NCBI GenBank assembly: GCA_041674765.1
Contig: JBAYVE010000001.1
Span: 198,177-262,176 of the forward strand
Length of the DNA: 64,000 nt
DNA from: Patescibacteria group bacterium
GTDB lineage: Bacteria; Patescibacteriota; UBA1384; XYA2-FULL-43-10; 1-14-0-10-43-13
Direction of reading: 5' to 3'
How positions within the stretch are numbered: the stretch's first letter is position 1; each line of letters starts with the position of its first letter. Position numbers and translations under genes: made by a program. The notes under the pieces are model-generated. The model saw only the letters and a list, made by a program, of their open reading frames with translations, ran no database searches and had not been told where the DNA came from. Positions 31,879-50,436 of this stretch are shown one piece after another.

Positions 31879-32202
31879 TTCGGCGAAGATGAAGAGATCC
31901 ATCGACTTGATAACTCTCGGAACGAGTAGACGTCTCTTTCTAATAACGTCCATTTTTCTCCTTTCCTTAATTACTCTTGGGCTCTCTATTTTAGTCCTCG
32001 CTTTAATTTAGTCAAGCAAGAGACCGTCTGCAGATTTTAAATGCGACACGGTAAAGACTTAAGAATTTTATCCTTTTTGTATAAACAGCCAAAAATATGG
32101 CTGTTATTTTTGTATTACTAATTATCTTTCTCCAATGCGCTTGTAAGCCCTATAAGCAATAATTTGACTATTCCAGATGCTTTTAAAAAAGAAGGCTATT
32201 TT

Positions 32203-33579
32203 ATGTCTATGAGTGCTGCTGAGACTTTATCAAAAGGACAAAAGAGATTGCTGATCATCTTCGGTTTATTGTTGGCGGTTTCTTTGGTTCTTTATTTCCA
32301 ATCGACTGTTATTACAATCCTGGCCTTTCTCACGGCTTTTTATCTTATCCATGTAATATTCTCATTTTACATGCTGATTAGATCAATGTTTTATGGTCAG
32401 GAGATTATTATTACAAAAGAGGAAATAGATAATTTCAAGAATTGGCCAAAGTATACTATACTCTGCCCCTTGTATAAGGAGGCCAATATGCTTCCAGATT
32501 ATGTTCTCAATATGAGTGCGATCGATTATCCGAAGGAAAGACTGGAATGCCTTCTTCTTTTAGAAGAGGATGATAGGGATACGATCAAAGCCGCAAGAGA
32601 ATTTGGACTTCCGGACTACTTCAAGATTGTCGTCGTGCCTGATAGCTATCCCAAGACAAAACCGAAGGCGTGCAACTTTGGATTGGCACAAGCCACCGGT
32701 GATTTTGTCGTTATTTACGATGCCGAGGATTTGCCGGAAACGGATCAATTGAAGAAGGCTATTCTTGCGTTCCGAAAAGCCAACCGGGATGTAGCCTGTA
32801 TCCAAGCAAAATTAAATTATTATAACCCGAACCATAATTTTCTGACCAGAATGTTTACTAGCGAATATACACTTTGGTTTGACCTGATTCTCCCTGGGTT
32901 TCAATCGATTAATGCTCCGATTCCTCTCGGAGGTACTTCCAACCATTTTCCGACCAAGATTTTGAGGTTGCTAAACGGTTGGGACCCCTACAATGTTACC
33001 GAGGATTGCGATCTCGGTTTGAGATTGAAAGAAGCCGGCTTCAAGACGGAGATTTTGGATTCTACTACTTGGGAGGAGGCAAACTGTAACCTCAAAAACT
33101 GGATTCGCCAGCGGTCCCGTTGGATTAAAGGATATTTTCAAACTTTTTTGGTTCACGGACGGACTCCTATCTATACCATCAGAAAAATAGGTTTTTTAAA
33201 TACTATGCTATTTGGATTATTTACTGGATTTCTGCCCTTTGCTTCTATGATTAATCCATTTCTTTGGCTAACCACAATCAGTTATTTTGCGCTGCGTCCC
33301 ATTATCGGAGAGACGATAGAACAATTCTTTCCAGGTTATATTCTCTACCCGTCGGCATTCTGTTTGATTGTTGGCAACTTTTTGTACATCTATAACTATT
33401 TGGTGGGATCGTCCAAGAGGGGATATGACGGCTTGGTGAAATATGGTCTTCTGATGCCGGTTTATTGGCTTTTAATTAGCTTTGCAGGTTGGTATGGGCT
33501 GATTCAACTCACTTTTAAACCTCATTTTTGGGAGAAAACGAAACATGGGCTTAGTAAAATCAAGGAAACAAATGCGTAA
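32203..33579 (+). CDS. family 2 glycosyltransferase, processive membrane-integrated synthase type
   Basis: N-terminal TM helices. DAED motif in VIYDAEDLPE. QRSRW (QxxRW) motif. C-terminal TM helices. ATG at 32203 is preferred over the TTG at 32164. Confidence 0.7.
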   Translation: MSMSAAETLSKGQKRLLIIFGLLLAVSLVLYFQSTVITILAFLTAFYLIHVIFSFYMLIRSMFYGQEIIITKEEIDNFKNWPKYTILCPLYKEANMLPDYVLNMSAIDYPKERLECLLLLEEDDRDTIKAAREFGLPDYFKIVVVPDSYPKTKPKACNFGLAQATGDFVVIYDAEDLPETDQLKKAILAFRKANRDVACIQAKLNYYNPNHNFLTRMFTSEYTLWFDLILPGFQSINAPIPLGGTSNHFPTKILRLLNGWDPYNVTEDCDLGLRLKEAGFKTEILDSTTWEEANCNLKNWIRQRSRWIKGYFQTFLVHGRTPIYTIRKIGFLNTMLFGLFTGFLPFASMINPFLWLTTISYFALRPIIGETIEQFFPGYILYPSAFCLIVGNFLYIYNYLVGSSKRGYDGLVKYGLLMPVYWLLISFAGWYGLIQLTFKPHFWEKTKHGLSKIKETNA

Positions 33580-35122
33580 CTTTAAATATATTTTTGCTTT
33601 AGTATTCATCATCAGTTTATTTCTGATTGCCACCTCGCGAGCTAGTCTCGGGAGTCCTTCTAAGGAAGATATCCAAAGTAATCTCAAAGAAGCCGGACAA
33701 TCATTTGAAAGCTCTCAGGAACGGGCTCGTTACTCTTTAGCGGAAGCGATAGTAAGAGACAAAACACTAGTGCTGGATAACTATGCGGATCAAGCCCTGC
33801 CCGATATCGCGTATAAGGACAACCACTATTACAGTGTATTCCCGCCAGGGTTTTCCTTTCTTATTGCTCCTGCCCTGTATCTAGGCGATAAAATAGGCCA
33901 GCCAGTTATCGCAGTTTTTGCGATTCCGCTCCTAGCAAGTATTTTGAGTGCAATTTTTATCTATCTGATAGCAGTAAATCATCTACAGATCTCAAAATTA
34001 TCCGGCCTGATCTCGGCTGTAGTATTTTCTCTGACGACTATTTCTTGGAGCTATTCGGTCACACTCTATGCGCACACAACTTCGGCGCTGTGTTTAATTG
34101 CAGGCATATATTTTGCCCTCAATTCAGTGAAGGGATCGGCAATCAATCATTTTTTGGTTTGGTTACTTTATGGGATTGCCATTTTGATTGATTATCCGAA
34201 TGCTCTAATCATGCTGCCGGTAGTCGGATTCATGTTTGTCACGAGTTTTGCGAGAGATAATAAATTTATCGAGCGCAAAGAGAGAATGTTCCTTCAATTC
34301 CGATTTGCTTCTACTTATACCATCCTGCCCTTTCTCCTTTTAGCATTAGCGCTTGCGTTTTATAACATCAAAACCTTTGGCGAATGGACAGCATTAGCTC
34401 ATAATTTTAGAGTAACTAATTTAATCGAGAATGGAGAGGTAACATACCAATTTCTAATTAGTCGCGCTCTTGATTTCAAGTATTTACAAAATGGTTTGTT
34501 TACCCTGCTTTTGAGTAAAAGTAGGGGAATAATTTATTATTGCCCTATCCTGTTGTTTTCGATTTATGGATATATAAAGGTAAATGAAAAATGGCCCAAG
34601 GTTGCGAGCTTATTCGTTCTGATATTTTTCATTAATCTAGTGATTTATGGCAGTTTCTATGACCCTTGGGGAGGTTGGGCATACGGCCCCAGATATTTGA
34701 TCGTTGCTATGCCGGTTTTGGCACTTCTAACCGGTGTCGCTTACGAATATATCAAAATTAGGAGTTCCTGGGTCTTTGGATTTGCCCTCTTGTTCTTCGC
34801 AAGCTTTGGCATCGCGCTTTTAGGGGCTTTGACTACAAATTTATTGCCCCCAGCCGCTGAGATAGGCCAGCAAATTGGTGCATTGGGTGCTCTGCCGATG
34901 CTTCACTCCGGGATAAGTGGTTCTCTTGTATTTAATCTAATTAGAAACACCATCAATATTTCATCACCCGAATTCTATCTTTTTTTAACAGCCCTTTTTG
35001 CTCTGTTTTTTATTCCGATTTTTCTTGGTCAAATCACTTTTAACTTTGTATTGGCTTTGAGGAGAAGGCATTCTAAGCAGAGCGAATATATTCTTAGCGA
35101 GAAGGAGGCTTTATGTTCTTGA
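33545..35122 (+). CDS. polytopic membrane protein, GT-C-fold glycosyltransferase-like (ArnT/PMT-like)
   Basis: More than 10 predicted TM helices. Periplasmic loop with DNYADQ..PPGFSFLIAP. Overlaps the upstream gene's end, consistent with operon coupling. Confidence 0.45.
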   Translation: MGLVKSRKQMRNFKYIFALVFIISLFLIATSRASLGSPSKEDIQSNLKEAGQSFESSQERARYSLAEAIVRDKTLVLDNYADQALPDIAYKDNHYYSVFPPGFSFLIAPALYLGDKIGQPVIAVFAIPLLASILSAIFIYLIAVNHLQISKLSGLISAVVFSLTTISWSYSVTLYAHTTSALCLIAGIYFALNSVKGSAINHFLVWLLYGIAILIDYPNALIMLPVVGFMFVTSFARDNKFIERKERMFLQFRFASTYTILPFLLLALALAFYNIKTFGEWTALAHNFRVTNLIENGEVTYQFLISRALDFKYLQNGLFTLLLSKSRGIIYYCPILLFSIYGYIKVNEKWPKVASLFVLIFFINLVIYGSFYDPWGGWAYGPRYLIVAMPVLALLTGVAYEYIKIRSSWVFGFALLFFASFGIALLGALTTNLLPPAAEIGQQIGALGALPMLHSGISGSLVFNLIRNTINISSPEFYLFLTALFALFFIPIFLGQITFNFVLALRRRHSKQSEYILSEKEALCS

Positions 35123-36723
35123 AATACCGCGATGCCATCGTCGTTGAGTTGCCATCAGGTTTGATAGCAGGACTCCGGGAAGGTGCAAATAGTCTTAAGA
35201 GGACTGCGGATGTCATTGTTTTGGCGATGGCGAGTGCCATTAGCTTTATCGGCTGGAAATTTTATTTTGACCAAAATCTGGTTTTGGCCTACAACGACTC
35301 GATGAGTCATTTGGATATCGCACGCCGGGTGGTTGACGGTTTAAATCCAGGTATCGCTCAGATAGGAAGTGTTTGGTTGCCTTTGCCCCACCTGCTTTCC
35401 TTGCCTTTTGTTTGGAGTGATTTTTTGTGGCACTCAGGTTTAGCCGGTACTTTGATATCCTGTCTCGCTTTCATCGGCACAGCGTACTTTCTTTATCGGC
35501 TTGTGTTGCTGCTGACCAGGGATACTATCTCTGGGATCCTTGCATCGTTGGTGTACATTCTTAATCCTAACATAATTTATCTTCAAGCTACACCGATGAC
35601 CGAATCGCTGCTTCTGTTCTTCTTTGTTATTTCAACTTATTATCTACTCCTTTGGCAGAAAAAAGACAGTTATAAATATCTGGCCTTGGCGGGATTTTAT
35701 ACTCTTGCTGCAACTTTGACCCGCTATGATGGATGGATGCTCCTAGCGCAAATGCTGATTGTGGTGGCGATAATCTCATATCGTTTTGGAAAATGGAAAA
35801 AAGTAGAGGGCAATCTGTTTTTGTTTGGAACGATTGCAGTATATGGTATTTTGCTCTGGTTTTTGTGGAATTTATTGATATTTCAAGATCCATTATATTT
35901 TTTAAATGGTCCATTTTCAGCCAAGGCTCAGCAGCTTGTTTTTGAGGCTGAAGGACGTTTGCCAACCAAGCACGATCTTCTATACTCCTCTTATATTTAT
36001 ATCCTGGCCGTTCTTCGAAACAATGGTGCGCTTCTCTCATTACTGGGCGGGGTAGGTCTGATTGGTTTTCTGTTTAGAAAAAAATTGAGCTCGGAAACCC
36101 TCGTTATTTCTCTGCTGCTGTCTCCACTGATTTTCAATATCGCGGCATTATTTACCGGTAATTCTATTATCAATCTGCTTGAACTACCACCTTATACATT
36201 ATTCAATGTGCGCTACGGCATAATGATGCTACCTTTTGTCGCGGTGATGGTTGCATATTTAGCTAGGAGGCAGCGGTTAATTCAATTGCTGTTTCTCATA
36301 GTATTGCTGCTCCAGACGGCTAGTATTTATAGAAATGACGATGTTATTACCGTGAAAGATGGAATTTCTGGAGCTTCGGCCCAAGGAATGACCGAAACCG
36401 GACGATGGCTCGGTGAAAATGCAAAAAGCGGGTTAATCCTAATCGCTGCCTCCAGTCAGGATTCGCTGATTTTTCAGAGTGGTCTTCCGATGACACGGTT
36501 CATTTATGAAGGTGATGGGGAATACTGGAAGGAGTCTTTGGCGGATCCCACTTCTCATGCTTCCTATATTGCGATGCACCACGGAGATCTTATTTACAGA
36601 GAGATTTTTGACAAGTCTTCATTTCTTTTGAATTACAAAAAAATATATGACGGAGAATTCACAGATATTTTCGAATATTCTCCTGATGCAGAGATCCCAT
36701 TAACGGCTAAGGATCTACCATAG
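35113..36723 (+). CDS. polytopic membrane protein, GT-C-fold glycosyltransferase-like (second copy)
   Basis: More than 10 TM helices. Start overlaps the previous stop (ATGTTCTTGA). Confidence 0.45.
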   Translation: MFLKYRDAIVVELPSGLIAGLREGANSLKRTADVIVLAMASAISFIGWKFYFDQNLVLAYNDSMSHLDIARRVVDGLNPGIAQIGSVWLPLPHLLSLPFVWSDFLWHSGLAGTLISCLAFIGTAYFLYRLVLLLTRDTISGILASLVYILNPNIIYLQATPMTESLLLFFFVISTYYLLLWQKKDSYKYLALAGFYTLAATLTRYDGWMLLAQMLIVVAIISYRFGKWKKVEGNLFLFGTIAVYGILLWFLWNLLIFQDPLYFLNGPFSAKAQQLVFEAEGRLPTKHDLLYSSYIYILAVLRNNGALLSLLGGVGLIGFLFRKKLSSETLVISLLLSPLIFNIAALFTGNSIINLLELPPYTLFNVRYGIMMLPFVAVMVAYLARRQRLIQLLFLIVLLLQTASIYRNDDVITVKDGISGASAQGMTETGRWLGENAKSGLILIAASSQDSLIFQSGLPMTRFIYEGDGEYWKESLADPTSHASYIAMHHGDLIYREIFDKSSFLLNYKKIYDGEFTDIFEYSPDAEIPLTAKDLP

Positions 36724-36845: not shown

Positions 36846-37616
36846 ATGGAGTTATCAATTATTATCCCAGTCTACAACGAAGAGAAAAGAATAGGTAAAA
36901 CTCTCTCTGAACTTCAGGAATATTTATCTAAATGCAAACTTGAATATGAGGTAATCGTCGTTGACGATGGATCAACAGATCAGACTTCTTTTATGCTTTA
37001 CAGATATAAATCCTTCATTAAAATACTTCCTGTTTGGCCCAACCGTGGCAAAGGTCATGCGATCCGTTTGGGAATGCTGATGGCCTCGGGCCAAAAGATC
37101 CTGTTTATGGATGCTGATCTGGCCACCCCACTCTATGAAGTGAAAAAAATTCTTCAGATCTCTGGAGATTACGACCTTGTCATCGGCTCCCGATCAGACC
37201 AAAAAATAGCGAAGAGAGAGCGATTCCGCAGCTTGTGTGCGAAAATATTTAATTCTGTAACCAAGGTGATCTTTCCCCTGCAAATTAAAGATACTCAGTG
37301 TGGATTTAAGCTGTTCACAAATGCAGCGGCTAAGGAGATATTTTCACGCGCCAGGATAAACCGCTGGGCCTTTGATATCGAGGTATTATTCCTTGCTAAA
37401 AAACTGGGCTTTTCTATCGGCGAACAGTCTGTTGCCTGGGAGGAAAAAGCTGGCAGCAAAGTTAGAATGTTCAGAGACGCGTCCAGAATGATCGTTGATC
37501 TCGTGAGAATTCGTATATACAATCTGTTTGATTTTTATCATTTGAAAGCCGAAGAAAGGAGCGAAGATGATTCGTTCGCAATCAGCCAAAAACCTCAGGA
37601 AATCAAAGAGCTTTAG
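36846..37616 (+). CDS. polyprenol-phosphate glycosyltransferase (GT2, DPM1/GtrB/ArnC-like)
   Basis: SIIIPVYNEE, VIVVDDGSTDQT, FMDADLATP. Confidence 0.8.
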   Translation: MELSIIIPVYNEEKRIGKTLSELQEYLSKCKLEYEVIVVDDGSTDQTSFMLYRYKSFIKILPVWPNRGKGHAIRLGMLMASGQKILFMDADLATPLYEVKKILQISGDYDLVIGSRSDQKIAKRERFRSLCAKIFNSVTKVIFPLQIKDTQCGFKLFTNAAAKEIFSRARINRWAFDIEVLFLAKKLGFSIGEQSVAWEEKAGSKVRMFRDASRMIVDLVRIRIYNLFDFYHLKAEERSEDDSFAISQKPQEIKEL

Positions 37617-38625
37617 GATAATTTTTCTCTTACTTATTTTTTTCTTTTTCCCTATTTTGAATATTGGATACGCAAAGTATTCTGATCCGAAAGGGAAGAA
37701 TACTATTCAGGAGAGTAGTAAACTTTCGGGCAAGGGAATGCAGATCCGAAGCATCGATACCCAGATAGTTTCTAAACATTGGGAGAATGTTGATGAAAAC
37801 GATATCAAGGAGCAGGTCTTGATGATCAAAAATCTGGGAGCCAATTATATCGCTGTTAGCACTCCCTATGACAATCCCGCTACCTTGAAACTATGGGCCG
37901 ATTCAATACATAATGCAGGCCTAAATGTTTGGTTTCGTTCTCATTGGCTTGATTGGGAAGGTGATAATAACCATCAATCTGTAATGAAAGTCGAGGACTA
38001 CTTAAAAAAGACCGGTGATTTTATCCAAGCTAATCCGGCGTTCTTCCGCCAGGGGGATGCATTCACCGTTTGCGTCGAGCCCGAGCAGGTCTTCACCGCC
38101 AGAAAAATCCAAGTTTTTGATTGGTACGGCTATAATAAATTTGTTATTGATCAAATTGATATTGCCAATGCCTCGTTTACAGAGATTGGACTTTCCGGTC
38201 AAATTCATACCAATTGGATTTCTATGAACGGTTGGGTCGTTGAAAACGGTCTGTCGCAAGAAGCAGTTGATAAAATGGGGTTGATCACCGTTGATCATTA
38301 TTCCAATGAAAAAACAATTGTGCCTCCTGCCGTTTTGGCGGATAAGATGGCTTCGGATCTTGAGAGAATGTATGAAAAATGGCAGAAGCCGATAATATTG
38401 GGTGAATGGGGCTATAACATCGAGCAGGAAGTCGATGATTATACCCAAAAACAAACTGTTGAGGAAACGCTTAATCGTCTGTCAAATTTAAGATTCTTGG
38501 TAGGTATAAATTACTGGGATCATATGGGCAACTCATCCAGGCTAATTAATGATGTTGACGGAGTACGCCTCGAATACCGTCCTTCAGCATTGACTGTCAG
38601 AGATTTTTTTCAAAGCAAAAAATAG
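37567..38625 (+). CDS. membrane-anchored clan GH-A-like glycoside hydrolase domain protein (paralog family, member 1)
   Basis: TM helix, then a domain shared with 39268..41460 and 42367..44346: SIDTQIVSKHWENV..GLNVWFRSHWLDWEGD..FTVCVEPE..ILGEWGY..INYWDHMGNSSRL. Putative acid/base and nucleophile Glu in EPE and GEWGY. Confidence 0.5.
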   Translation: MIRSQSAKNLRKSKSFRIIFLLLIFFFFPILNIGYAKYSDPKGKNTIQESSKLSGKGMQIRSIDTQIVSKHWENVDENDIKEQVLMIKNLGANYIAVSTPYDNPATLKLWADSIHNAGLNVWFRSHWLDWEGDNNHQSVMKVEDYLKKTGDFIQANPAFFRQGDAFTVCVEPEQVFTARKIQVFDWYGYNKFVIDQIDIANASFTEIGLSGQIHTNWISMNGWVVENGLSQEAVDKMGLITVDHYSNEKTIVPPAVLADKMASDLERMYEKWQKPIILGEWGYNIEQEVDDYTQKQTVEETLNRLSNLRFLVGINYWDHMGNSSRLINDVDGVRLEYRPSALTVRDFFQSKK

Positions 38626-38769
38626 TTCTCTAACCCCTCTTGAGACTTTATTAATTTTGTTTCTAATAAGGAGTTTTTTGTTATGTAAACAAATTTTTTT
38701 GCCAAAGAAACTAGTCTTCTAAAGGATTAATATTGGTCCAATTTAACCTTTGGAAGGAGGTGGAAAAAG

Positions 38770-39071
38770 TGAAATATCTAATATTAAGTGTGGTCCTAGC
38801 TTTGACAATGGGTGCCGGTGGATCAATTGCCTTCACATTGCCAACTGTTCTACAAAAAGCAGAGAATAACCCAAATAGAGTTGCTTATTATAAAACTGGA
38901 ATTCATGGTATTCCTGATCGTCCGGGGATCGTTCATAAAGGCGAGGATTCTGATGACTTTGTCCTGATTCCAGACGCAAGAGAGAACGGTTGGGGAGATT
39001 ATCTGACTCCCGGTGCTGATTATTGTGCGAAATCAAACGATTTGGCAGTCGAGAATATACCTGGGTTTTAA
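38770..39071 (+). CDS. small secreted protein with ENGWGDYL-PG-DYC motif (family of two)
   Basis: SD GGAGGTGG before the GTG at 38770. Signal peptide. Motif shared with 44610..45110. Confidence 0.4.
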
Positions 39072-39267
39072 TAGAAAATTTGTCTTGCAGAAATGTCCGG
39101 AGATGATGTCAAAGGGCATTTCTGAATGGCAACAATCTTTAACTTTAAACAATATAGGAGTTTCATCTTAAAAACTACTCCGTTGTAGAGTAGTTTTTAA
39201 GGGTTTACATGACTCGTTTCCCCTCGGCCATCTGCCCCGATGGATATTGGGGCAGATGAGCCGAAAG

Positions 39268-41460
39268 TTAAATATAGTATTGTTTTATTATATTCGCGAT
39301 CGGTCGTGGAGTGTAATCCAGGAGATTGGCTGTATCAAAGAGTCTTGAGGCATGTCCGACATCAATCCAATAGTTCATTCCGATAATATAGCCTCTGGCC
39401 GAGAATTCTTTCAGAACTGCTGCCGCTAGTTCTGCTTGGTGATTTGGATCCATACTTTGGTTGAATGTTGAATAGCCCCATTCTCCGGCCATCATCGGCA
39501 CTTTCCACTTATTATAATATTCATCATAGCCATAGAAACCGTTACCATTACCTTTGAAGAGGGCATTTACATAGGTGCCGGTATCATCTGTCCAGTCAAT
39601 AATATGATCCAAGGTTAATTGGCCAATCACGTTGACAGTAGCCTGATCAAGCACATTCCAGGCGACCCAACCATTCATGTTGATCCAATTAGTCTTTATC
39701 TTGCCGCCAAGCCCAATTTGGCTGAATGCTTCGTTGGCATAGATGACCTGATTTCTGGTAAACGCTCTCCAGCTTTCCCAACCGGTGAAAGCACCGTGGT
39801 CGATTCCAGTCCACCAGGCGGCGTTTTCAGATTCAACACACATTGTGAATGCATCGCCTGCTCGGAATAATTCTGGGTGATCTAGAATAAATTGTTTTGT
39901 TCTTTTCAAATATTCGATATTGGTAATACCATTTTTTATCTCAGGCTTTTCCCAACTATCCCATTCATCCCAGTGGGCCCGAAACCATACATTTAGTCCC
40001 TCGGAATGAATGATGTCGGCCCATTTCCTCATTAACGGATAATTATTGTAATTGATACTGATCGCAATTTGTTTTGCACCGATTGCTTTATCAGCCAGTA
40101 CCAAGCGACGGATCTGATTATCATCTGAAATAGCCCAGTATTTACTCATAACCTGACTATCGATGGATTGTGCCTGCCATTTAGAATTGGTGGGAGGTAT
40201 TACTACAGCCGGCACAAGAATTGTGATGGCGTTCGAGAAATCTGAAACCTTGGAACCATCAGTTGCTTTTATTTGATATTGGTAATTATTACCAGCTGAA
40301 ATATTGGTGTCCGTATAAGAGGAGTTACTCACCCGAGCAATTTCGTTTCCATTTCTGTAAATAATGTATGACGGACCGGAACCATTCCAGGTCAGTAATA
40401 TTTTATCATTATTATAGTTTGCGTTTAGGCTACTCGGGGTTGTCAGATCGGTGATTGGAGCCGGAACTGTATTGCCAGTGAGAGTTACATTATCGATATT
40501 ATAGGTACCCGGGAGGTAGTTCCAAAAACGAAAGGAGAGTGACGCGATTCCGTTATTATTATCCAACCCCGGGAATTCGGAGAGGCCGATTTTCACATGC
40601 TGCCAGACTGAAATACCATTGGTTACCTTATTCTTTAATGATACCATTCTGGTTCCGCCTTGATCGAAAGAGACTATCGCTGCATCGCCCGAAAGTAGAT
40701 AGGCGCCATTTAAATTCAAATCGAATTCTATGGTCTGATAACCTTTAAGAACCGGAGAATTTATAATTTTCTTCGTAGAGGCATCACCATTGGCAGGGTT
40801 TTGAAGTTGCAATGCTTCGCTATTATTGTTGCCCCTATCAAAACCGTTCAATCCGTTATCAAAATTAGCGATTATGTACCCAGATGCTGGTGTGGTGGGC
40901 GGTGTCACCGGGGGAATAACAGGGGGCGTTATTGGGGGGGTGATTGATTTGTTCGAAACTTTGATATTATCAAAATAATAATCACCGGCAGTATAGTTCC
41001 AGAGTCTAAGCGTCATTGAAGCGATGCCTTGACTAGTATTTAGACCGGCAAAATCAGACAACGGAATGGTCACATGTTGCCAGCTGTTCTGACTGTTGTT
41101 GACATATTTTTTGAGCGGCACCATCTTCCAGCCACCCTGGTCAAAAATAATTCCGGAAGCGTCTCCATCCAGAATAGTTGAACCATTTAAATTTACATCC
41201 ATCTCCAAAGTTGTCCAACCGTTTAAAAAGCGGTTGTTGAAAACCTTCGTCGCACCCACAGAGTCGTTGGCACTGTTATGCAAGGACAGAGCCTTGCTTG
41301 AACTAAAACCAGCCGCCAGACTCCCGTTGTTCCATCCTTCCAAAGTGTTCGTTTCAAAATCAGCAATCTTTGACTCCGCTGCACTGGCAAAGATTGGATT
41401 TAGGAACAGAACAGAGGCAAGGATTAATAAAGCCAAAGAGAGTTTCTTCATTTGTAGCAC
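39268..41460 (-). CDS. secreted multidomain protein: 2x beta-sandwich (CBM-like) + fibronectin-III-like + C-terminal GH-A-like hydrolase domain (member 2)
   Basis: Signal peptide. Two ~140-aa repeats ending ..DQGGWKMVPL..WQHVTIPLSDF.. and ..DQGGTRMVSL..WQHVKIGLSEF... FN3-like segment. Hydrolase domain with FTMCVESEN and MMAGEWGY. Confidence 0.6.
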   Translation of the reverse strand: MLQMKKLSLALLILASVLFLNPIFASAAESKIADFETNTLEGWNNGSLAAGFSSSKALSLHNSANDSVGATKVFNNRFLNGWTTLEMDVNLNGSTILDGDASGIIFDQGGWKMVPLKKYVNNSQNSWQHVTIPLSDFAGLNTSQGIASMTLRLWNYTAGDYYFDNIKVSNKSITPPITPPVIPPVTPPTTPASGYIIANFDNGLNGFDRGNNNSEALQLQNPANGDASTKKIINSPVLKGYQTIEFDLNLNGAYLLSGDAAIVSFDQGGTRMVSLKNKVTNGISVWQHVKIGLSEFPGLDNNNGIASLSFRFWNYLPGTYNIDNVTLTGNTVPAPITDLTTPSSLNANYNNDKILLTWNGSGPSYIIYRNGNEIARVSNSSYTDTNISAGNNYQYQIKATDGSKVSDFSNAITILVPAVVIPPTNSKWQAQSIDSQVMSKYWAISDDNQIRRLVLADKAIGAKQIAISINYNNYPLMRKWADIIHSEGLNVWFRAHWDEWDSWEKPEIKNGITNIEYLKRTKQFILDHPELFRAGDAFTMCVESENAAWWTGIDHGAFTGWESWRAFTRNQVIYANEAFSQIGLGGKIKTNWINMNGWVAWNVLDQATVNVIGQLTLDHIIDWTDDTGTYVNALFKGNGNGFYGYDEYYNKWKVPMMAGEWGYSTFNQSMDPNHQAELAAAVLKEFSARGYIIGMNYWIDVGHASRLFDTANLLDYTPRPIANIIKQYYI

Positions 41461-41612
41461 CTCTTGTTATTAATGATTTCTAGATCGATTATATGCTTGC
41501 CGAGCACTACTTTTCTTTGGCGAAAAATGCAAAAAGGGTCTTTATAAACTGTGATTAATCAAAAGAAACATATAAAACTACCTTTTCTTTGCGAGAGTAG
41601 TATAATGAATAT

Positions 41613-42239
41613 ATGAAAAGATTAATGAGTTTCTTTTTTATCGCACTTGTAGCTGCGGCTGTGATTGGAGGATTTACATATTTTTATATTGAGTCCAAAT
41701 CTGAAAAGGAGTTGGTGAAACTTCAGGTTGAGATCAACCGACTCAAGGTAAAAATTGATCCTGTCTCGGAGGATGAAGATTTGGCAATCGATCTCTCCGG
41801 CTGGCAAACCTTTGCAAATAAAACAGCCGCTTATGAGGTAAAAACACCGCCAGATTGGCAGGTAAATAGTCGAAATATGCAGACAGTGACATTAAATAGC
41901 CCTGATCATGAGAAGCTACGAGGTATTACAGACGAGGGATATGTCGAGGATATAGTAATCAGACACTATAAAGATATCGCTCAGGCCGCTGTGGCTTTAG
42001 CCAGCCCGGCTAAGGACCTGGGAGAATTAGCAGCTGATAGCAAAATGTTTGTTTCTTCAACGAAGACGACTATATCAAAGAATTTGGCCTATGGTGTAAT
42101 AGCCAAGGAAACAAATGCCTATATAGTATTTTGTGAGAATATGGGTCACATTTATAGTCTAGCTTTTGGCAACCGGCCGAGTGAGGACGAGTTAAATGCT
42201 ACAGAGAGAGCAATTCTTGACAGTTTTGTATTCATGTAA
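41613..42239 (+). CDS. hypothetical membrane-anchored protein
   Basis: N-terminal TM helix, 208 aa. Bidirectional terminator hairpin at 42322..42357 downstream. Confidence 0.45.
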   Translation: MKRLMSFFFIALVAAAVIGGFTYFYIESKSEKELVKLQVEINRLKVKIDPVSEDEDLAIDLSGWQTFANKTAAYEVKTPPDWQVNSRNMQTVTLNSPDHEKLRGITDEGYVEDIVIRHYKDIAQAAVALASPAKDLGELAADSKMFVSSTKTTISKNLAYGVIAKETNAYIVFCENMGHIYSLAFGNRPSEDELNATERAILDSFVFM

Positions 42240-42321
42240 AAAGGAAAGATTTCCTTTGGACGATTAAGTGGGATGGAACGCTTGAACAACAGAAACCTTC
42301 ACGAATTAAAATAGATATAAA

Positions 42322-42357
42322 AAATGCCTCCAGCTTTTACTGCCGGAGGCATTTTTG
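42322..42357. terminator. bidirectional rho-independent terminator
   Basis: AAAAATGCCTCCAGCTTTTACTGCCGGAGGCATTTTT between convergent genes. Confidence 0.65.
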
Positions 42358-42366
42358 TAGATCTGA

Positions 42367-44346
42367 TTATTTTAGCACGTAGGTAATATTATCAATATTG
42401 TAACTCGCGGCGTGGTCGTTCCAGAAACGGAAGCCGATACTGGCAAGGCCTGATTGCTTATTCAAACCGGCAAAATCAGATAGTGGGATCGACACATGTT
42501 GCCAGCCGTTTAAGCCATTCTTGACATATTTTTCCAGACTTACCCATTTCCAGCCGCCTTGATCGAAGTATAGAGCAGAGGCGTCACCGGGAAGGATCTT
42601 GTTGCCTTTCAAATTAATATCCAACTCGATATAGTTATAGTTTCCGATCTTGGCATCATTCAAATCCTTTTTTGATCCGTTGCTGCCGTTGATTGGATTG
42701 CTAATCTCGAGTGAGTAATTCGAATTATTTCCCTCTGTCAGTCTGCCGCCGACAAAACCGTTCATACCTGATTCAAAATTTGCAAGGATTGAAGATGCTG
42801 CAGGATCAGTTTCGCCAGTTGGAGGAGTTGTTGCCAAATTCGCAGAGCCAAGCGAAACATTATCGATATCATAGTTGCCCGCATTTATATTCCAGAATCT
42901 GACTCCAAGAAAAGCCGCCTCTGTTCCGTTAAGTTTAAAGTCACTGATTGGAACAGAAATGTGCTGCCAGCCGCTTTGTCCGTTTTGAACATAATTGGCA
43001 AGGGAGACGTATTTCCAGCCACCCTGGTCAAAATAAAGTGCTGAAGCATCACCAGGTAAGATTTTGTTGCCGTTTAGGTTTATATCCATTTCCACTTTAT
43101 CGTAGCCTGATAACGAAATGTTGGATATATTTTTCTTGGCGCCGTTACTACCATCTGCAGGATTCGAAATTCGGAGCGCCCCGCCCGAATTGTTGCCGGC
43201 GATAATTGATCCGGCATCCCAACCATTAAGGCCATTTTCAAAATCAGAGATTATTTTTGTTCCAATCGGTGCCGGAGTTGGTGCCGGTGTCGGAGTTGGT
43301 GCCGGCGCTATACTGCCAGAATAGTATGATTTTATCACATCGGCTGCCGGACGCATTGTGGTCGGCGTGCCACTATTATCATTTATGATACGGGTTTGGT
43401 TACCCATATGATCCCAGTAAGACACTCCCATAATGTAGGATTTCGAAGCGAACACATAATAGACGGCCTCTGTGGCCTGCTTTTGCAGATCGTTTGAAAC
43501 TTCTCCTCCAATATGATATCCCCATTCGCCAATCATAATCGGTTTTTGCCATTTAGCATAGAAACGATCTAAATCTCCGCTCATATCAGAAGCTAGTTTG
43601 GCAACAGGAGTTGGGTTTGAAGGATCGCCCTGTGGCGAATAATGATCAGGAGTGATTAGCCCCATTTTATCGACTGTCGCTTGGGTCAAAGCATTCTCAA
43701 TAATCCAACCATTCATCGAAAGCCAGTTGGTTTTGATTTGTCCGCCCAAACCTATTTGATTGAAGGCGGCGTTTGACTCGTCGATCTCCTGAACTAAAAA
43801 TCTGTTGTAAGCATTCCAGTCGGCAAATGCTCCTGGATTGACTCCTGCATTTTCAGCTTCGACCGACATTGTAAATGAATCGCCTGATTTGAAGAACGAA
43901 GGATGATCAATTATGAATTGCTTTGTTTTGATAACATATTGGTCTGGTGTCATGTTTTTGGGCTGACCCTCGTCGCCTTCCCAATTTAACCAGTGTGAAC
44001 GGAACCAAACATTTAGGCCCGCATCGTGGATTGAAGTGGTCCATTTTTCCATCTCCTCCGGACGGTCATACGGAGTGCCGATGGCGATATAATTGACTCC
44101 AAGACCCTTGAGCATTTGTACTTGTTGATCTATCGAATTCTGCGGCACGTTATTCCAGCATTTGCTGATTATTTGCGTGTCAACGCTTTTTACCTGCCAG
44201 TTTGCTCCTGCCGCTTCAACCGTTTTTGACGGGGAGAAAGCAATTGCGAAAAAGGTTGCGAATGGGAGCATCAGAAAAAGCATCAAGATACTAATCGCTT
44301 TTGTCAGACTCTTTCTCGAACCTTTATATTTTGTGGAATTCTCCAT
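42367..44346 (-). CDS. membrane-anchored/secreted GH-A-like hydrolase domain + Pro/Thr linker + 2x C-terminal beta-sandwich (CBM-like) modules (member 3)
   Basis: Hydrolase domain (SVDTQIISKCWNNV..FTMSVEAEN..IMIGEWGY), PAPTPTPAPTPAP linker, two DQGGWKYVSL/DQGGWKWVSL modules. Same modules as 39268..41460 in the opposite order. Confidence 0.6.
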   Translation of the reverse strand: MENSTKYKGSRKSLTKAISILMLFLMLPFATFFAIAFSPSKTVEAAGANWQVKSVDTQIISKCWNNVPQNSIDQQVQMLKGLGVNYIAIGTPYDRPEEMEKWTTSIHDAGLNVWFRSHWLNWEGDEGQPKNMTPDQYVIKTKQFIIDHPSFFKSGDSFTMSVEAENAGVNPGAFADWNAYNRFLVQEIDESNAAFNQIGLGGQIKTNWLSMNGWIIENALTQATVDKMGLITPDHYSPQGDPSNPTPVAKLASDMSGDLDRFYAKWQKPIMIGEWGYHIGGEVSNDLQKQATEAVYYVFASKSYIMGVSYWDHMGNQTRIINDNSGTPTTMRPAADVIKSYYSGSIAPAPTPTPAPTPAPIGTKIISDFENGLNGWDAGSIIAGNNSGGALRISNPADGSNGAKKNISNISLSGYDKVEMDINLNGNKILPGDASALYFDQGGWKYVSLANYVQNGQSGWQHISVPISDFKLNGTEAAFLGVRFWNINAGNYDIDNVSLGSANLATTPPTGETDPAASSILANFESGMNGFVGGRLTEGNNSNYSLEISNPINGSNGSKKDLNDAKIGNYNYIELDINLKGNKILPGDASALYFDQGGWKWVSLEKYVKNGLNGWQHVSIPLSDFAGLNKQSGLASIGFRFWNDHAASYNIDNITYVLK

Positions 44347-44609
44347 AAATTTCTCCTATTAATGACCTCTTTTTGTGAGAGGTGATAACGGAGTATAAGG
44401 CCGGAGGGTATCAAAGTCAAGCAAGAAAACAATGGGAAGATTACAAATTTAAAGACTTTAGAAAAGTAACAAATATTCTTTGTTTATGATAAATCTGCTT
44501 ATTCTGAACCGTATTATTAATAGTTCCTTTGTCTGGTTATCCAGTGTTTTAAGTGCTAGTTCCGTCTATATTCTTAGGTAAGTAATCAAACGGAAAGGAG
44601 GTGAAATAA

Positions 44610-45110
44610 ATGAAGTATCTAATTGGAATTTTCTTTGCGCTCGGAATGATGTTTGTGGCCACACCAAAGGCATCTGCTGCGACTTCATCTGCGGTTGATA
44701 ATTTCTTTCAGAATAAACTAGAGAAGTACGAAGGTCATATCCTTGCCTATTACACAGACGGGCTTCATGGTATTGTCGGAGAATCGGGAATAACACATGA
44801 GGGCATCGATCTTGTTGTCGAAGTTTCTCACGGTTGTAAGAAGGTAATCAAGCAATGGTTTTGGGGCACTTCCGACACAGAGGGTCTGCATGGCGAGAAA
44901 AGTGTATGGAGAGAAGTCGGTTTGGACGCGAAAAAATGCTTGAAGAGCGAAGTATTGGTTAAGGACGCAAAAGAGAACGGTTGGGGTGATTATTTGAAGC
45001 CGGGGATGGATTATTGTGTTAAAACAACCAATTTTAGCATCAAGGATAAAAATCAGAAAGATTTCAAATGGAAAAATAAGCTAAATCATTGGGATTGGGA
45101 CAGGAGATAG
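44610..45110 (+). CDS. small secreted protein with ENGWGDYL-PG-DYC motif (paralog of 38770..39071)
   Basis: SD GGAGGTG. Signal peptide MKYLIGIFFALGMMFVATPKASA. Terminator hairpin at 45125..45155. Confidence 0.5.
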   Translation: MKYLIGIFFALGMMFVATPKASAATSSAVDNFFQNKLEKYEGHILAYYTDGLHGIVGESGITHEGIDLVVEVSHGCKKVIKQWFWGTSDTEGLHGEKSVWREVGLDAKKCLKSEVLVKDAKENGWGDYLKPGMDYCVKTTNFSIKDKNQKDFKWKNKLNHWDWDRR

Positions 45111-45257: not shown

Positions 45258-45671
45258 TTATTTCTCCTCTTCCTCTTCTAGATCGATCATATTTCGACAG
45301 ACATCGGCGCAATTTCGGCAAGCCATAGCACAATCCTTCATTTTCTGATCGTTGAAAAATTTCTCACATGATTCGGCGCAGTCATCACATATAAAAGCAC
45401 ACAAACTAAGCATATCTCCTGCATATTCTGAATCGCGTAAGAAAAAATTTTGGGCTATTTTACAGATATCGGCGCAATCCATCAACCACCGGAGGTGATC
45501 TTTTTCAACGAAATCTCCGCCTTGATCGAGACAATGGGTAATTCCGCTAACGCATTCTTCATAACATTGGTCCAGGTTTGCGATCAGATCTCTAGCTGAT
45601 TCGTCCTGCATAATGTCTTCGACAATCTCATCTTTTTCTTCCTCGGCTTCTTTGTTCTCGTCATTATCCAT
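45258..45671 (-). CDS. cysteine-rich four-helix-bundle protein (DUF326/Csp-like copper-storage type), acidic tails
   Basis: Repeated CxxxC / CxxC pairs (CYEEC, CADIC, CDDCAESC, CAMACRNCADVC) on predicted helices. Acidic N- and C-termini. Confidence 0.5.
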   Translation of the reverse strand: MDNDENKEAEEEKDEIVEDIMQDESARDLIANLDQCYEECVSGITHCLDQGGDFVEKDHLRWLMDCADICKIAQNFFLRDSEYAGDMLSLCAFICDDCAESCEKFFNDQKMKDCAMACRNCADVCRNMIDLEEEEEK

Positions 45672-47789: not shown

Positions 47790-47866
47790 CAGCCGTTAGA
47801 CAGGCCTTCCGAGTATTCGGGAGGCCTGCATTTATAGTTTTAAGATATTGGTGTTATAATTGATCT

Positions 47867-48355
47867 ATGGTTTCGATTCTGATTTTTATATTTCTTTTGG
47901 TTTTGCTCCTTTTGGGACTGCTGGGAGTAATTTTGCCGATGCTTCCAGGCATTCCCCTGATGTTCTTGACGGTGCTGCTTTACGCTATTTTCGATCATTT
48001 CGATCGGATTACGGTTACAAATATTGTTATACTCGGCATCTTTACAGCTCTATCTATATTAACCGACTACGCCTCAGGAATCCTTGGCGCCAAATTTTTC
48101 GGGGCATCGAAACAGGGGATGATTGGCGGCCTCATCGGTGGTATTGCCGGCTTATTTATCTTTCCGCCGTTTGGAATTTTTATCGGGTTATTTTTGGGCG
48201 TCATAGCATCAGAACTATTGCTTACTGGCAAAAAGATAAATCGTGCGATAAAATCAGGTGCCGGAGCCTTGCTCGGATCACTCGCCGGAATCTTAACAAA
48301 CTTTTTGGTCGGGTTGATATTTATTATCTATTTTATCTTTGGCTTTTGGCGATGA
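47867..48355 (+). CDS. DUF456-like small membrane protein
   Basis: Four TM helices, with GIPLMFLTVLLYAIFDHFD. Confidence 0.5.
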   Translation: MVSILIFIFLLVLLLLGLLGVILPMLPGIPLMFLTVLLYAIFDHFDRITVTNIVILGIFTALSILTDYASGILGAKFFGASKQGMIGGLIGGIAGLFIFPPFGIFIGLFLGVIASELLLTGKKINRAIKSGAGALLGSLAGILTNFLVGLIFIIYFIFGFWR

Positions 48356-50436
48356 AAAAAAAGAAGAATCAATTAGTAATTGCAATTTCCGGAGTTTCCG
48401 GAGCAGGGAAAGGGACACTGCTCGATTTTTTGCGTGATATGAAGGAGACTTTTTGCAATGTACCTTCCTATACAACAAGAGCCAAGAGACCGGGCGAGGC
48501 AGAGGGCACAAATCGTTTTTTTATTTCCGAAGAAGAATTTGATGCGGGTATAAAGGCCGGTGAATTTATCGAATGGGAGAAAGTCCATCAATACCGCTAT
48601 GGCCGGAAAAAGAAGGACGTCGAAGCGGCGATAGAGAGCGGCAAAATCCCTTTTATGGAGATTGATGTCAAAGGCACGCAAAAGTTCAAAAAGATATTTC
48701 CCGGACTCGTCAGTATTTTTATATTGCCACCAAGTTTTGAAGAAGCAATGAAAAGAGTTCGAAACAGGGGAGCTGAATCCGAGGAGGACATTAAACTTCG
48801 AGCTTCGCGCTATGAAATGGAAACATCTTATAAAAATGCCTATGATCATATTCTGATCAATGATGATTTGAATAAAGCCAAGGCCGATCTTCTGTCGATC
48901 ATTCGCAAAGAGGAAGAGAAATTAAGAAAAAGTCAATTTGATCTGAGACATTCGATTTTGATCGGTCTGGGAGCGTTGTTTCTAACAACTTTTTTCACGG
49001 TGGCTGCGGCAGCTTCACTTCTGCTGACCGGAACGATGAGCGAGCAGACAAAGGAAAACAAAATTTTACAAACGGAGGAAGAAGCCCAAACTCCCGAGCC
49101 CGAGGTAGTCGAGGCCATTCCATCTGTAGAAGAAATATCCAAGGAAGTCGCCAAAAATCCTCCAAAACGCACAGCTCCGATAAACTCGGGGCAGACAACC
49201 ACAAATAGCGACGGAACTAAAACCACGGTTGTTTCGACCGGCGGAGGCCTCGGCGATCTGAGTGGCGTCTTATCCAGCAATGTGAGTGCTAGCACTCCAT
49301 ATGGGGTTCCCTACAGGGATGAGACTGGAGAATATTCTAATTTGGGTACTGTCTTGAAGGACTATCTAAATAACAGTCTTCGCTGGAAGAACGAGATTAC
49401 TGCCTTGAAGGAGATTGTATTGCGGAATGCCGGCAATACCGGATGGAGTGGCCAGTATCTTGGCCAATATACGGCAGATTCCAGTGGGAAGATTACAAAT
49501 GCTAGTGGTGTCATCGTTTTGAATGCCTATTATGGAAGCGGCTCCAACTTTATTGAGGATATGAAATTGGTTTTTTCCCATGAATATGGGCATCACTATA
49601 CGCTTTATCATAAATGGGTGGATTGGAGTTTGCCAAATGGTGTACGCTTTCCTGATAGCTACTATCAACTAAGAGGACTCTCCAAAACAACAACTTCAAC
49701 AGACTACTCGAAAGGATGGATCAATTGCGAATCTGAAATCATTGCCGAGGACTATTCTTACCTCTATTCCGGCTATGGCTATAGCGGAGTAGCGGATATC
49801 TATGGTCTTCCTTCCTCTGCAGTTAGAAATTGGCTGGACAAAATCGGTGATAGTTCGCTTTTGAATACTATTGTTAATCAGGCGCCAACAATTAATATAA
49901 TTTCGCCAGCTCCCGCCGCTGTACTTTCTGGTACTTTTTCATTTTCAGCTGAAGCTAGTGACGATATTGGAATTTCAAAGGTCTCTTTCTATATCGATAA
50001 CACTTTGATCCTTGAGGATACAAAGGCACCGTATGCTGTCGAGATCAATACATCAAGTTTCCAAAACGGCCAGTATAATCTTCGGGCTGTAGTTTCAGAT
50101 GGCACTTTGTCGGCTGAAAAGATTACGGCTGTCACTTTGCAAAATAATGTGGTTGATCTGGAGAAACCTGTAGTTACTATTATTTCACCTACTGAAAACC
50201 CTCAAATTCTGAAAAATGATAATTTAACTCTAAATGTTACAGCAACAGATAATAATCGGATTGATCGGATCGAACTCTATCTTGATGACGAAAAGCAAAA
50301 CAGTTGGAAGCTTGCGGATCTCTCACTACGGGTCTCATTCAAAAATTTCCCTGTTGGGAACTATACTCTAAAATTTAGAGCTTTCGATGAGGCGGGGAAT
50401 TATGGTGATGCCACACTTCAAGTAGTCAAAATTTAA
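48352..50436 (+). CDS. gmk: fusion protein: complete guanylate kinase domain + TM helix + extracytoplasmic HExxH (zincin-like) region + two Ig-like domains
   Basis: ATG overlaps the upstream stop (ATGA). Gmk motifs ISGVSGAGKGTLL, YTTRAKRPGEAEGTNRFFISEEEF, EIDVKGTQK. TM ILIGLGALFLTTFFTVAAAASLLLTG. FSHEYGHHYTLYH. Two ~100-aa Ig-like repeats (..ISPAPAAVLSGTFSFSAEASDDIGISKVSFYID.., ..IISPTENPQILKNDNLTLNVTATDNNRIDRIELYLD..). Confidence 0.55.
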   Translation: MKKKKNQLVIAISGVSGAGKGTLLDFLRDMKETFCNVPSYTTRAKRPGEAEGTNRFFISEEEFDAGIKAGEFIEWEKVHQYRYGRKKKDVEAAIESGKIPFMEIDVKGTQKFKKIFPGLVSIFILPPSFEEAMKRVRNRGAESEEDIKLRASRYEMETSYKNAYDHILINDDLNKAKADLLSIIRKEEEKLRKSQFDLRHSILIGLGALFLTTFFTVAAAASLLLTGTMSEQTKENKILQTEEEAQTPEPEVVEAIPSVEEISKEVAKNPPKRTAPINSGQTTTNSDGTKTTVVSTGGGLGDLSGVLSSNVSASTPYGVPYRDETGEYSNLGTVLKDYLNNSLRWKNEITALKEIVLRNAGNTGWSGQYLGQYTADSSGKITNASGVIVLNAYYGSGSNFIEDMKLVFSHEYGHHYTLYHKWVDWSLPNGVRFPDSYYQLRGLSKTTTSTDYSKGWINCESEIIAEDYSYLYSGYGYSGVADIYGLPSSAVRNWLDKIGDSSLLNTIVNQAPTINIISPAPAAVLSGTFSFSAEASDDIGISKVSFYIDNTLILEDTKAPYAVEINTSSFQNGQYNLRAVVSDGTLSAEKITAVTLQNNVVDLEKPVVTIISPTENPQILKNDNLTLNVTATDNNRIDRIELYLDDEKQNSWKLADLSLRVSFKNFPVGNYTLKFRAFDEAGNYGDATLQVVKI

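Follow-up and report, generated by a model that had tools for sequence, protein, structure and literature searches.

A predicted clan GH-A-like hydrolase domain at the end of a conserved glycosyltransferase cassette in Patescibacteria, with repeated fusions to the cassette enzymes

Patescibacteria account for a large share of bacterial diversity and are attached to host cells, and the biogenesis of their envelopes is largely uncharted. Cellulose synthase operons include a glycoside hydrolase (GH), BcsZ, of family GH8, and PslG of Pseudomonas, a GH39 enzyme, belongs to clan GH-A. Glycoside hydrolases such as PslG are encoded within exopolysaccharide operons (PMC9075953, PMC4928890, PMC11912335). 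Moreover, in NdvB and the pseudomonad protein "Orphan," a periplasmic GH17 TIM-barrel is fused to a family 2 glycosyltransferase (GT2) that acts as a glucan synthase, and the barrel has been proposed to cleave and cyclize the product (PMC10237404). Here, we analyze 64 kb of DNA from the metagenome-assembled genome of a Patescibacteria group bacterium (GenBank assembly GCA_041674765.1, contig JBAYVE010000001.1, positions 198,177 to 262,176), called the window below, that encodes three copies of a predicted hydrolase domain in proteins that we call hydrolases A, B, and C. A first-pass annotation had described these proteins, together with beta-sandwich modules and two small secreted proteins, as modular surface glycan-processing machinery, but it overlooked the most important feature of the setting, a conserved glycan-biosynthesis cassette that ends with the gene for hydrolase A. 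We consider it probable, if by no means certain, that the domain is an unclassified clan GH-A-type hydrolase or transglycosylase that acts beside a pair of GT-C glycosyltransferases on a nascent envelope glycan.

The cassette lies on the forward strand in the order GT2a, TM525, GTC536, GT2b, and hydrolase A. GT2a (32164 to 33579) is a membrane-integrated GT2 of the processive synthase type, with DAED, TED, and QRSRW motifs and flanking transmembrane (TM) helices; it matched Pfam Glyco_trans_2_3 (E value of 2.5e-26) and, among Protein Data Bank (PDB) sequences, the family 2 glycosyltransferase 6yv7 (5.9e-8) and BcsA (1.4e-6). GTC536 (35113 to 36723) is a PMT_2-type GT-C with about nine TM helices and a C-terminal soluble domain, and its match to Pfam PMT_2 (1.6e-6) scored 28.9 bits against a cutoff of 26.1. 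TM525 (33545 to 35122), also with about nine TM helices, appears to be a second, divergent GT-C, on weaker evidence than that for GTC536. The window copy had no Pfam match, and its placement comes from profile-profile comparison: the TM525 family aligned with the GTC536 family by hhalign with a probability of 86% (E value of 5e-6, 284 columns), and one TM525 orthologue matched Pfam PMT (1.3e-6). Searches of PDB sequences with GTC536, TM525, and both of their profiles returned no matches. Finally, GT2b (36846 to 37616) is a soluble polyprenyl-phosphate glycosyltransferase of the GtrB/DPMS/ArnC type that matched Pfam Glycos_transf_2 (4.7e-25) and, in the PDB, GtrB sll0501 (2.7e-15), DPMS 5mlz (1.8e-13), and ArnC (4e-12). 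The end of GT2b overlaps the start of the hydrolase A gene by 50 nucleotides (nt) in the window (37567 to 37616) and by 38 nt in a second locus, L002 (8001 to 8038), which suggests translational coupling.

The arrangement is not peculiar to the window. A scan of genome collections with a few peptide patterns yielded 11 loci, a number that is no measure of prevalence, and we call a locus informative if it includes enough upstream sequence. In all 13 informative loci (the window, L002, L005 to L012, L014, L021, and L023), one or more GT2 genes, TM525, the GT-C gene, in some cases GT2b, and the hydrolase gene follow one another on one strand, overlapping or nearly abutting. One to five GT2 genes precede the order TM525, GT-C, hydrolase, and in at least 7 of 10 loci the genes upstream of the hydrolase include a GT2a orthologue. 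TM525 lies directly upstream of the GT-C gene in every informative locus, and the GT-C gene immediately precedes the hydrolase in all of them, GT2b alone intervening in the window, L002, and L013. The loci come from Amesbacteria, Curtissbacteria, Saccharibacteria, and other metagenome-assembled genomes, and the identity of their hydrolases to those of the window falls as low as 28 to 32%; the L021 hydrolase, 28% identical and ending in a CarboxypepD_reg tail, keeps the cassette order. The triad of divergent GT-C, GT-C, and hydrolase is constant while the genes upstream of it vary between loci.

Other genes for envelope glycopolymers surround the distant triads, among them genes for GT4, Bac_transf, and ManC-like nucleotidyltransferase proteins. 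We note that PIG-L and CE4 deacetylases (some fused to GT2 or GT4), GNAT proteins, and CsaB-type pyruvyl transferases are encoded ahead of the triad in L006 (4945 to 6736), L007 (5764 to 6810), L009 (4640 to 6700), L014 (4415 to 5635), L021 (930 to 1751), and L023 (4100 to 5824). A modified, hexosamine-containing cell-wall glycopolymer is suggested for the distant lineages.

The hydrolase domain is, moreover, repeatedly part of the same polypeptide as one of its cassette partners. Counting each cluster at 50% identity as one independent case, we found such fusions in eight clusters and in locus L014. Six clusters (P0064, P0069, P0082, P0091, P0107, and P0138) and a 941-amino-acid (aa) open reading frame of the Saccharibacteria locus L014 (8363 to 11188) join a GT-C to the hydrolase domain, the barrel standing behind the GT-C's final TM helices and its soluble C-terminal domain. 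One cluster (P0072) joins TM525 to the hydrolase, and one (P0058, a metagenomic protein of 583 aa) joins GT2b to it. All of the fusions keep the full set of catalytic residues described below. Literature searches for a GT-C/GH system of Patescibacteria or for a GT-C-GH fusion returned nothing relevant, and to our knowledge the fused architecture has not been described before.

Hydrolase A (37567 to 38625, forward strand) is the simplest of the three window copies, a protein of 352 aa with an N-terminal TM anchor (aa 18 to 36) and a catalytic domain (aa 57 to 352; nt 37735 to 38622). The identical NCBI entry, from a contig of 365 kb, reads [quoted passage not shown] The catalytic domains of A, B, and C matched no Pfam or NCBIfam model at an E value of 1 or below, and a phmmer search of PDB sequences with protein A gave zero matches. 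An indexed homologue search returned 55 relatives, mostly single-domain proteins of about 350 aa that resemble A; they are unnamed or called "hypothetical protein" only, and their catalytic part is without a Pfam domain. When 1.84 billion cluster representatives were searched exhaustively with a family profile, 591 matched at an E value of 1e-3 or below, 188 of them at 1e-30 or below, and no family member carries a functional name in the sources that we examined.

How the domain folds was predicted with AlphaFold2 from an alignment of 41 sequences. The model has eight strand-helix repeats at high confidence (pLDDT of 95.1, pTM of 0.93), and the clan GH-A-like fold proposed in the first-pass annotation is borne out as a (beta/alpha)8 TIM-barrel in this predicted, rather than solved, structure. 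When the model was compared with the PDB by Foldseek, the top matches were all clan GH-A enzymes, with a probability of 1.0, template modeling scores (TM-scores) of 0.59 to 0.67, and about 14% identity. The nearest were GH113 beta-mannanases (E value of about 4e-10), GH2 beta-glucuronidases (TM-score up to 0.67), the GH79 bacterial heparanase, and GH5 endoglucanases. The structural likeness of the model is at the level of the clan, and no single GH family is close.

Residue conservation, taken from 150 representatives with pairwise identities of 50% or less, points to the same clan. E118, four residues after predicted strand 4 (residues 112 to 114), is kept in 148 of 149 sequences, and E229, in the GEWGY motif at the end of strand 7 (225 to 230), in 143 of 145. 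In hydrolase A, the two correspond to the putative acid/base glutamate of CVEPEQ (nt 38071 to 38088) and the putative nucleophile of GEWGY (nt 38401 to 38415). R71 (146 of 147), D111 (149 of 149), D189 (146 of 146), and W266 (140 of 143) are similarly well conserved, and E120, a second acidic residue near E118, is kept in 124 of 149 (83%). On the model, E118 and E229 have the "4/7" catalytic arrangement of clan GH-A, with the predicted nucleophile at the C-terminal end of strand 7 and the predicted acid/base after strand 4, for which E120 is an alternative. Moreover, the family profile matched the GH2 beta-glucuronidase 6xxw (E value of 6.4e-7) over the region of strands 6 to 8, with GEWGY aligned on SEFG of the segment ILSEFG, the glutamate of which we take to be the GH2 nucleophile position; GH53 and GH10 gave weaker matches. 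A glutamate after strand 4 together with one ending strand 7 leads one to expect a retaining double-displacement reaction, and the mechanism is probably retaining if the model is right.

Two deviations from the conserved pattern are worth recording. P0059, a protein of 367 aa and a close relative of A (profile E value of 1e-111), has threonine and lysine in place of the two catalytic glutamates and keeps the rest of the domain, and it probably represents a branch of the family that has become a pseudo-enzyme. Hydrolase B departs from the family at two conserved positions, E78 to D (WDEWDSW) and Y191 to I (LDHII), substitutions that hint at a specificity different from that of A and C.

Which GH family the domain belongs to had been proposed as GH5, GH26, or GH113, and that assignment we reject, as the likeness is structural and at clan level (TM-score of about 0.6, 14% identity) and lacks sequence support. 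Neither Pfam Cellulase nor Pfam GH26 matched the window proteins at an E value of 1 or below, and profiles of the family found no GH113, GH26, or GH5 chain among PDB sequences (E value of 10 or below with alignment A1, 1 or below with alignment A6). Only 2 of 84 diverse relatives touched the GH5 model Cellulase (PF00150), at an E value of 0.002. The sole GH model reached repeatedly was PF11790 (Glyco_hydro_cc, "glycosyl hydrolase catalytic core"), which corresponds to the CAZy family GH128 of beta-1,3-glucanases. It was matched by 13 of the 84 at an E value of 0.01 or below (best, 9e-6), and two relatives reached its gathering score (26.2 and 21.1 versus 21 bits). These matches span the region of strands 6 to 8 and the nucleophile, but they are partial (about positions 139 to 225 of 237), covering the C-terminal third of the model, and the window copies did not match it even at an E value of 1; we do not claim membership. 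Set beside the established families of clan GH-A (GH113 5ylh, 4cd7, and 3civ; GH2; GH79 5bwi; GH5 3ndy), the domain shares the predicted (beta/alpha)8 barrel, a glutamate after strand 4, and a glutamate ending strand 7. It differs in that identity is about 14% with none clearly closest and in that (V/C/P)-E-x-E-(N/Q) stands where those families have Asn-Glu. The catalytic glutamates pointed out earlier are therefore upheld by their conservation and by the alignment of the GEWGY glutamate with the GH2 nucleophile, while a GH family match is not forthcoming; with one part of the idea borne out and the other not, it is not refuted. We conclude that the domain of about 300 aa, set against Pfam, NCBIfam, and the PDB, is a real family and a candidate unclassified GH-A-type enzyme family, one for which a very recent CAZy assignment may exist.

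The other two copies combine the domain with further modules, and both genes lie on the reverse strand. Hydrolase B (39268 to 41460) is a protein of 730 aa, or 727 aa with the start called three codons later on the source contig, and consists of a signal peptide, a first beta-sandwich module (nt 40948 to 41379), a Pro/Thr linker, a second sandwich (40471 to 40887), an FN3-like region (40210 to 40464), and the catalytic domain (39271 to 40182). Hydrolase C (42367 to 44346; 659 aa) consists of an N-terminal anchor or signal segment (aa 17 to 35), the catalytic domain (aa 46 to 344; nt 43315 to 44211), a PT linker (43261 to 43314), and two sandwiches (42841 to 43263 and 42370 to 42795). These domain orders, the five open reading frames for A, B, C, and the small proteins S1 and S2, and the motifs of the hydrolases [WFR(S/A)HW, (C/S)VE.E(N/Q), GEWGY, and (N/S)YW], of the sandwiches [DQGG(W/T)..WQH(V/I).(I/V).(L/I)S(D/E)F], and of the small proteins [ENGWGDYL(T/K)PG.DYC] all bear out the first-pass annotation, and each of the five proteins is predicted to be extracytoplasmic by a TM anchor, signal segment, or signal peptide. 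By pairwise BLASTP, A is 46% identical to C across 348 aa (E value of 6e-112) and 37% identical to B (3e-62), and the catalytic domains of B and C are 39% identical (4e-71). The sandwiches are 46 to 48% identical among themselves (about 1e-33 to 1e-35), and S1 is 29% identical to S2 (2e-15). The similarity among the paralogues exceeds chance by far, and tblastn of each module across the full 64 kb recovered three hydrolase domains, four sandwiches, and two small-protein genes and no others, which agrees with the counts proposed before.

The sandwiches had been likened to carbohydrate-binding modules (CBMs), and structure supports the likeness. An AlphaFold2 model from a five-sequence alignment is a jelly roll (pLDDT of 90.9), and its best PDB match by Foldseek was the CBM11 structure 1v0a (E value of 2e-6, TM-score of 0.74, root mean square deviation of 3.1), followed by CBM28, CBM8, and CBM30 and then by CBM16, CBM22, CBM27, and CBM29. 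Sequence comparison was less decisive. A word-indexed homologue search with the module returned one protein. A 16-sequence profile, built from loci already collected, reached the CBM30 of Clostridium thermocellum at an E value of 0.004 by way of a common strand, WQHVKIPL, and CBM11 at 0.7. Pfam CBM30 (PF21582) scored 22.2 and 18.9 bits over a partial stretch of the sandwiches, against a cutoff of 27. We conclude that the modules are CBM-like in their predicted structure and fall below the sequence thresholds of CBM11 and CBM30. Like the type B modules CBM11 (1v0a), CBM28 (1uww), CBM30 (1wmx and 2c24), and CBM8 (7t7y), they are predicted jelly rolls placed in tandem beside a putative glycanase; unlike them, they score under the Pfam CBM30 cutoff at 16 to 20% identity, and carbohydrate binding is predicted by fold only. 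The FN3 call in hydrolase B is plausible: residues 333 to 417 matched Pfam fn3 at an E value of 0.023 over positions 3 to 82 of 84, with 15.3 bits against a cutoff of 25, and the B orthologue of L002 has a faint fn3 match.

The accessory modules of the wider family are different again. We note that, in place of CBM-like modules, 38 of 84 relatives (alignment A6) have a CarboxypepD_reg (transthyretin-like) tail at the C terminus and that 3 of 84 have dockerins, and thus the accessory modules of the hydrolase family differ by lineage. One relative, P0114, is fused to a GH5 cellulase domain, and another, P0183, carries CBM4_9. Judging from the sequences of the relatives that bear dockerin, GH5, or CBM4_9 modules, degradative enzymes with several domains make use of the fold as well.

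How the domain might work with the cassette can be outlined. GT2b would charge polyprenyl phosphate with a sugar, the two tandem GT-C enzymes would use the resulting donor on the outer face of the membrane, and their acceptor may be the chain exported by the processive GT2a. All three hydrolases are predicted to be displayed outside the membrane, with A anchored in it, and the barrel, with its acid/base in VE.E(N/Q) and its nucleophile in GEWGY, would sit at the membrane surface near the GT-Cs, perhaps physically coupled to them. There, it would cleave or trim the nascent glycan or else transglycosylate the chain to a final acceptor, in either case through the expected double displacement. Hydrolases B and C, which have orthologues in L002 and L015, are lineage-specific duplicates that acquired tandem CBM11/28/30-like modules, and these putative chain-binding sandwiches might keep the enzyme attached to a beta-glycan, whether the polymer of the cell's own envelope or a similar one of the host or environment. 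The CBM11/28/30-like modules, the QRSRW synthase, the affinity for Glyco_hydro_cc, and the relatives fused to GH5 or CBM4_9 give weak, indirect hints of a beta-glucan-like substrate. More tentatively, and with doubt outweighing confidence, we entertain the possibility that the barrel is an obligate extracytoplasmic partner of the tandem GT-C pair, the three forming an envelope-glycan assembly module, not described before, that is conserved across Patescibacteria and has become a single polypeptide in Saccharibacteria and other lineages, with the barrel serving as a transglycosylase or release enzyme that finishes or attaches a lipid-linked glycan.

Several points weigh against a role in envelope-glycan synthesis or against the enzymatic assignment itself. 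Clan GH-A enzymes classically have an Asn-Glu (NEP) acid/base motif, which the family lacks: E118 follows V, C, or P, and E120 makes the assignment of the acid/base ambiguous. Every relative is unnamed or called a hypothetical protein, and the enzymatic role, like the active-site geometry and the cleft shape, is a prediction from sequence and model. Gene order and fusion indicate functional linkage and are silent on the direction of the reaction, hydrolysis or transfer. The upstream glycosyltransferase genes differ between lineages and leave the glycan undefined. Moreover, B and C have an architecture of degradative type and lie outside the cassette, and some relatives have GH5, CBM4_9, or dockerin modules, which are characteristic of enzymes that degrade glycans.

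The last of these points could mean that A, B, and C, and most of all the last two, are secreted glycanases of an ordinary degradative kind that harvest sugars from beta-glycans of the host wall or environment for fermentation, the link to GT-C enzymes being incidental or confined to copy A. The CBM-CBM-(FN3)-GH and GH-linker-CBM-CBM layouts of B and C are classic for such enzymes, the GH5-, CBM4_9-, and dockerin-bearing relatives fit the same picture, and the nearest CBM folds bind beta-1,4- and mixed-linkage glucans. A review credits Patescibacteria with numerous glycoside hydrolases whose presumed role is to supply fermentation (PMC11665869). At every informative locus, however, copy A or its orthologue sits in a biosynthetic cassette, and fusion to GT-C, TM525, or GT2b in eight independent clusters is not something that a purely catabolic enzyme needs; moreover, no sugar transporter or catabolic genes lie beside B or C in the window. 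We regard a purely degradative role as unlikely. That the barrel is no glycosidase at all, acting instead as a glycan-binding or scaffolding domain for the GT-Cs or carrying out some other TIM-barrel chemistry, would suit the lack of matches to GH models among the window proteins, the missing NEP motif, and the persistence of the fold in P0059 after both glutamates were lost. Both glutamates, R71, D111, D189, and W266 are nevertheless kept in at least 97% of diverse members, every fusion included, the nucleophile region aligns significantly with GH2, and the top structural neighbors are all active clan GH-A enzymes, so that we hold this alternative to be extremely improbable. An enzyme that works on the envelope glycan beside the GT-C pair is thus the reading that we prefer.

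Whether the small proteins belong to the same system was considered separately. S1 (38769 to 39071, forward strand; 100 aa) and S2 (44610 to 45110, forward strand) are the secreted proteins with the ENGWGDYL motif that had been described as companions of the hydrolases. The start of S1 is most likely the GTG at 38769 called on the source contig, rather than 38733. Neither Pfam nor NCBIfam gave a significant match to either protein. The S2 family, 10 clusters in a database of 5.8 billion sequences, has a signal peptide, a YY.G.HGIVGE.GI.H.G.D block, a QWF.GTS block, and a C-terminal block, C...NA.E.WG.YL.PG.DYC.KT.DF, with two conserved cysteines; S1 is a truncated paralogue of S2 without the central 55 aa or so, one of the conserved cysteines included.

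Were these proteins dedicated accessory subunits of the hydrolases (a chaperone, an inhibitor, or a specificity factor), one would understand why, in the window, no more than about 270 nt separates each of the two paralogues from a hydrolase gene, why the S2 orthologue of L015 lies between the orthologues of B and C, and why S1 and S2 have signal peptides that would bring them to the compartment of the hydrolases. Only in the window and L015, however, is the small protein beside a hydrolase. The 13 other informative hydrolase loci lack it, namely, L002 and L005 to L014, where tblastn and/or a motif search found none within 10 kb, and L021 and L023, judged by called genes; in L002, the orthologues of B and C are directly adjacent with no small protein between them. 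Conversely, L016 to L020 have the small protein without an adjacent hydrolase, four of the five contigs being short (2.6 to 3.6 kb), and its 10 clusters stand against 591 representatives of the hydrolase family. In three contexts, the neighbor is instead a gene for a Cys-rich Csp/DUF326 protein (PF03860). By tblastn and a motif regular expression on the loci collected, and by five context look-ups, we reject the companion role as a general rule, and we find a dedicated accessory function very doubtful. The two secreted copies near hydrolases in the window are real, but the ENGWGDYL protein is a rare orphan secreted family, and its linkage to hydrolases is local synteny outside the conserved system.

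The Csp/DUF326 gene recurrently adjoins hydrolase C (in L002, 15312 to 15725) and the ENGWGDYL protein (in the window, 45258 to 45671 on the reverse strand; in L016, 272 to 640; and in L020, 2405 to 2626), and the small protein may be linked to it as much as to the hydrolases. Between B and C lies the gene for P208 (41613 to 42239, forward strand), a protein with a TM helix, a coiled coil, and a C-terminal domain that matched no Pfam or NCBIfam family. P208 is a weak paralogue (E value of about 1e-5) of P313 (46310 to 47251, forward strand), which has the same layout and likewise no family match. The two flank the B/C region, and similar N termini adjoin the hydrolase loci L013 and L015. In L002, the space between B and C holds no P208 gene, and the membership of P208 in the hydrolase system is uncertain.

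Farther downstream, the forward-strand gene at 48340 to 50436 encodes a protein of 698 aa in which, unusually, a nucleotide kinase of cytoplasmic type is joined to a surface protein; it has an N-terminal guanylate kinase domain (PF00625, aa 14 to 190), a TM segment, and an extracellular region with an HExxH-like motif (SHEYGHHY) and two Big_7 immunoglobulin-like domains. An open reading frame of 858 aa that starts at 47860 is an out-of-frame overextension across the gene for a membrane protein of 162 aa (47867 to 48355).

The fold and the general enzyme class are ordinary, and it is the cassette and the repeated fusions that give an entry point into envelope-glycan assembly and a testable handle on how Patescibacteria build or remodel their surface glycans. 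For the carbohydrate-enzyme field, the domain is a candidate new GH family that comprises 591 cluster representatives and for which neither a model nor a solved structure exists. Should the barrel prove to be an obligate partner of the GT-C pair, both the GH family, at the CAZy level, and the GT-C-coupled architecture of the pathway would be new. Small size and solubility make the catalytic domains amenable to direct expression and screening, and the fused gene is present in Saccharibacteria, some of which are now culturable and genetically tractable.

Compared with PslG and BcsZ, the window hydrolases show no sequence relationship to GH39 or GH8, their invariant partners are two GT-Cs rather than Wzx/Wzy or BcsAB, and the hydrolase is sometimes covalently fused to a partner. 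The likeness lies in an extracytoplasmic glycanase, here a predicted one, encoded with the synthase machinery of a surface glycan. Compared with NdvB and Orphan, the fusion partner is a GT-C, TM525, or a soluble GtrB-like GT2 rather than a processive GT2, and the domain is not GH17. What is shared is the design, a TIM-barrel predicted to lie on the outer face of the membrane and fused to a membrane glycosyltransferase, and the window cassette also has a BcsA-like GT2 with the QRSRW motif.

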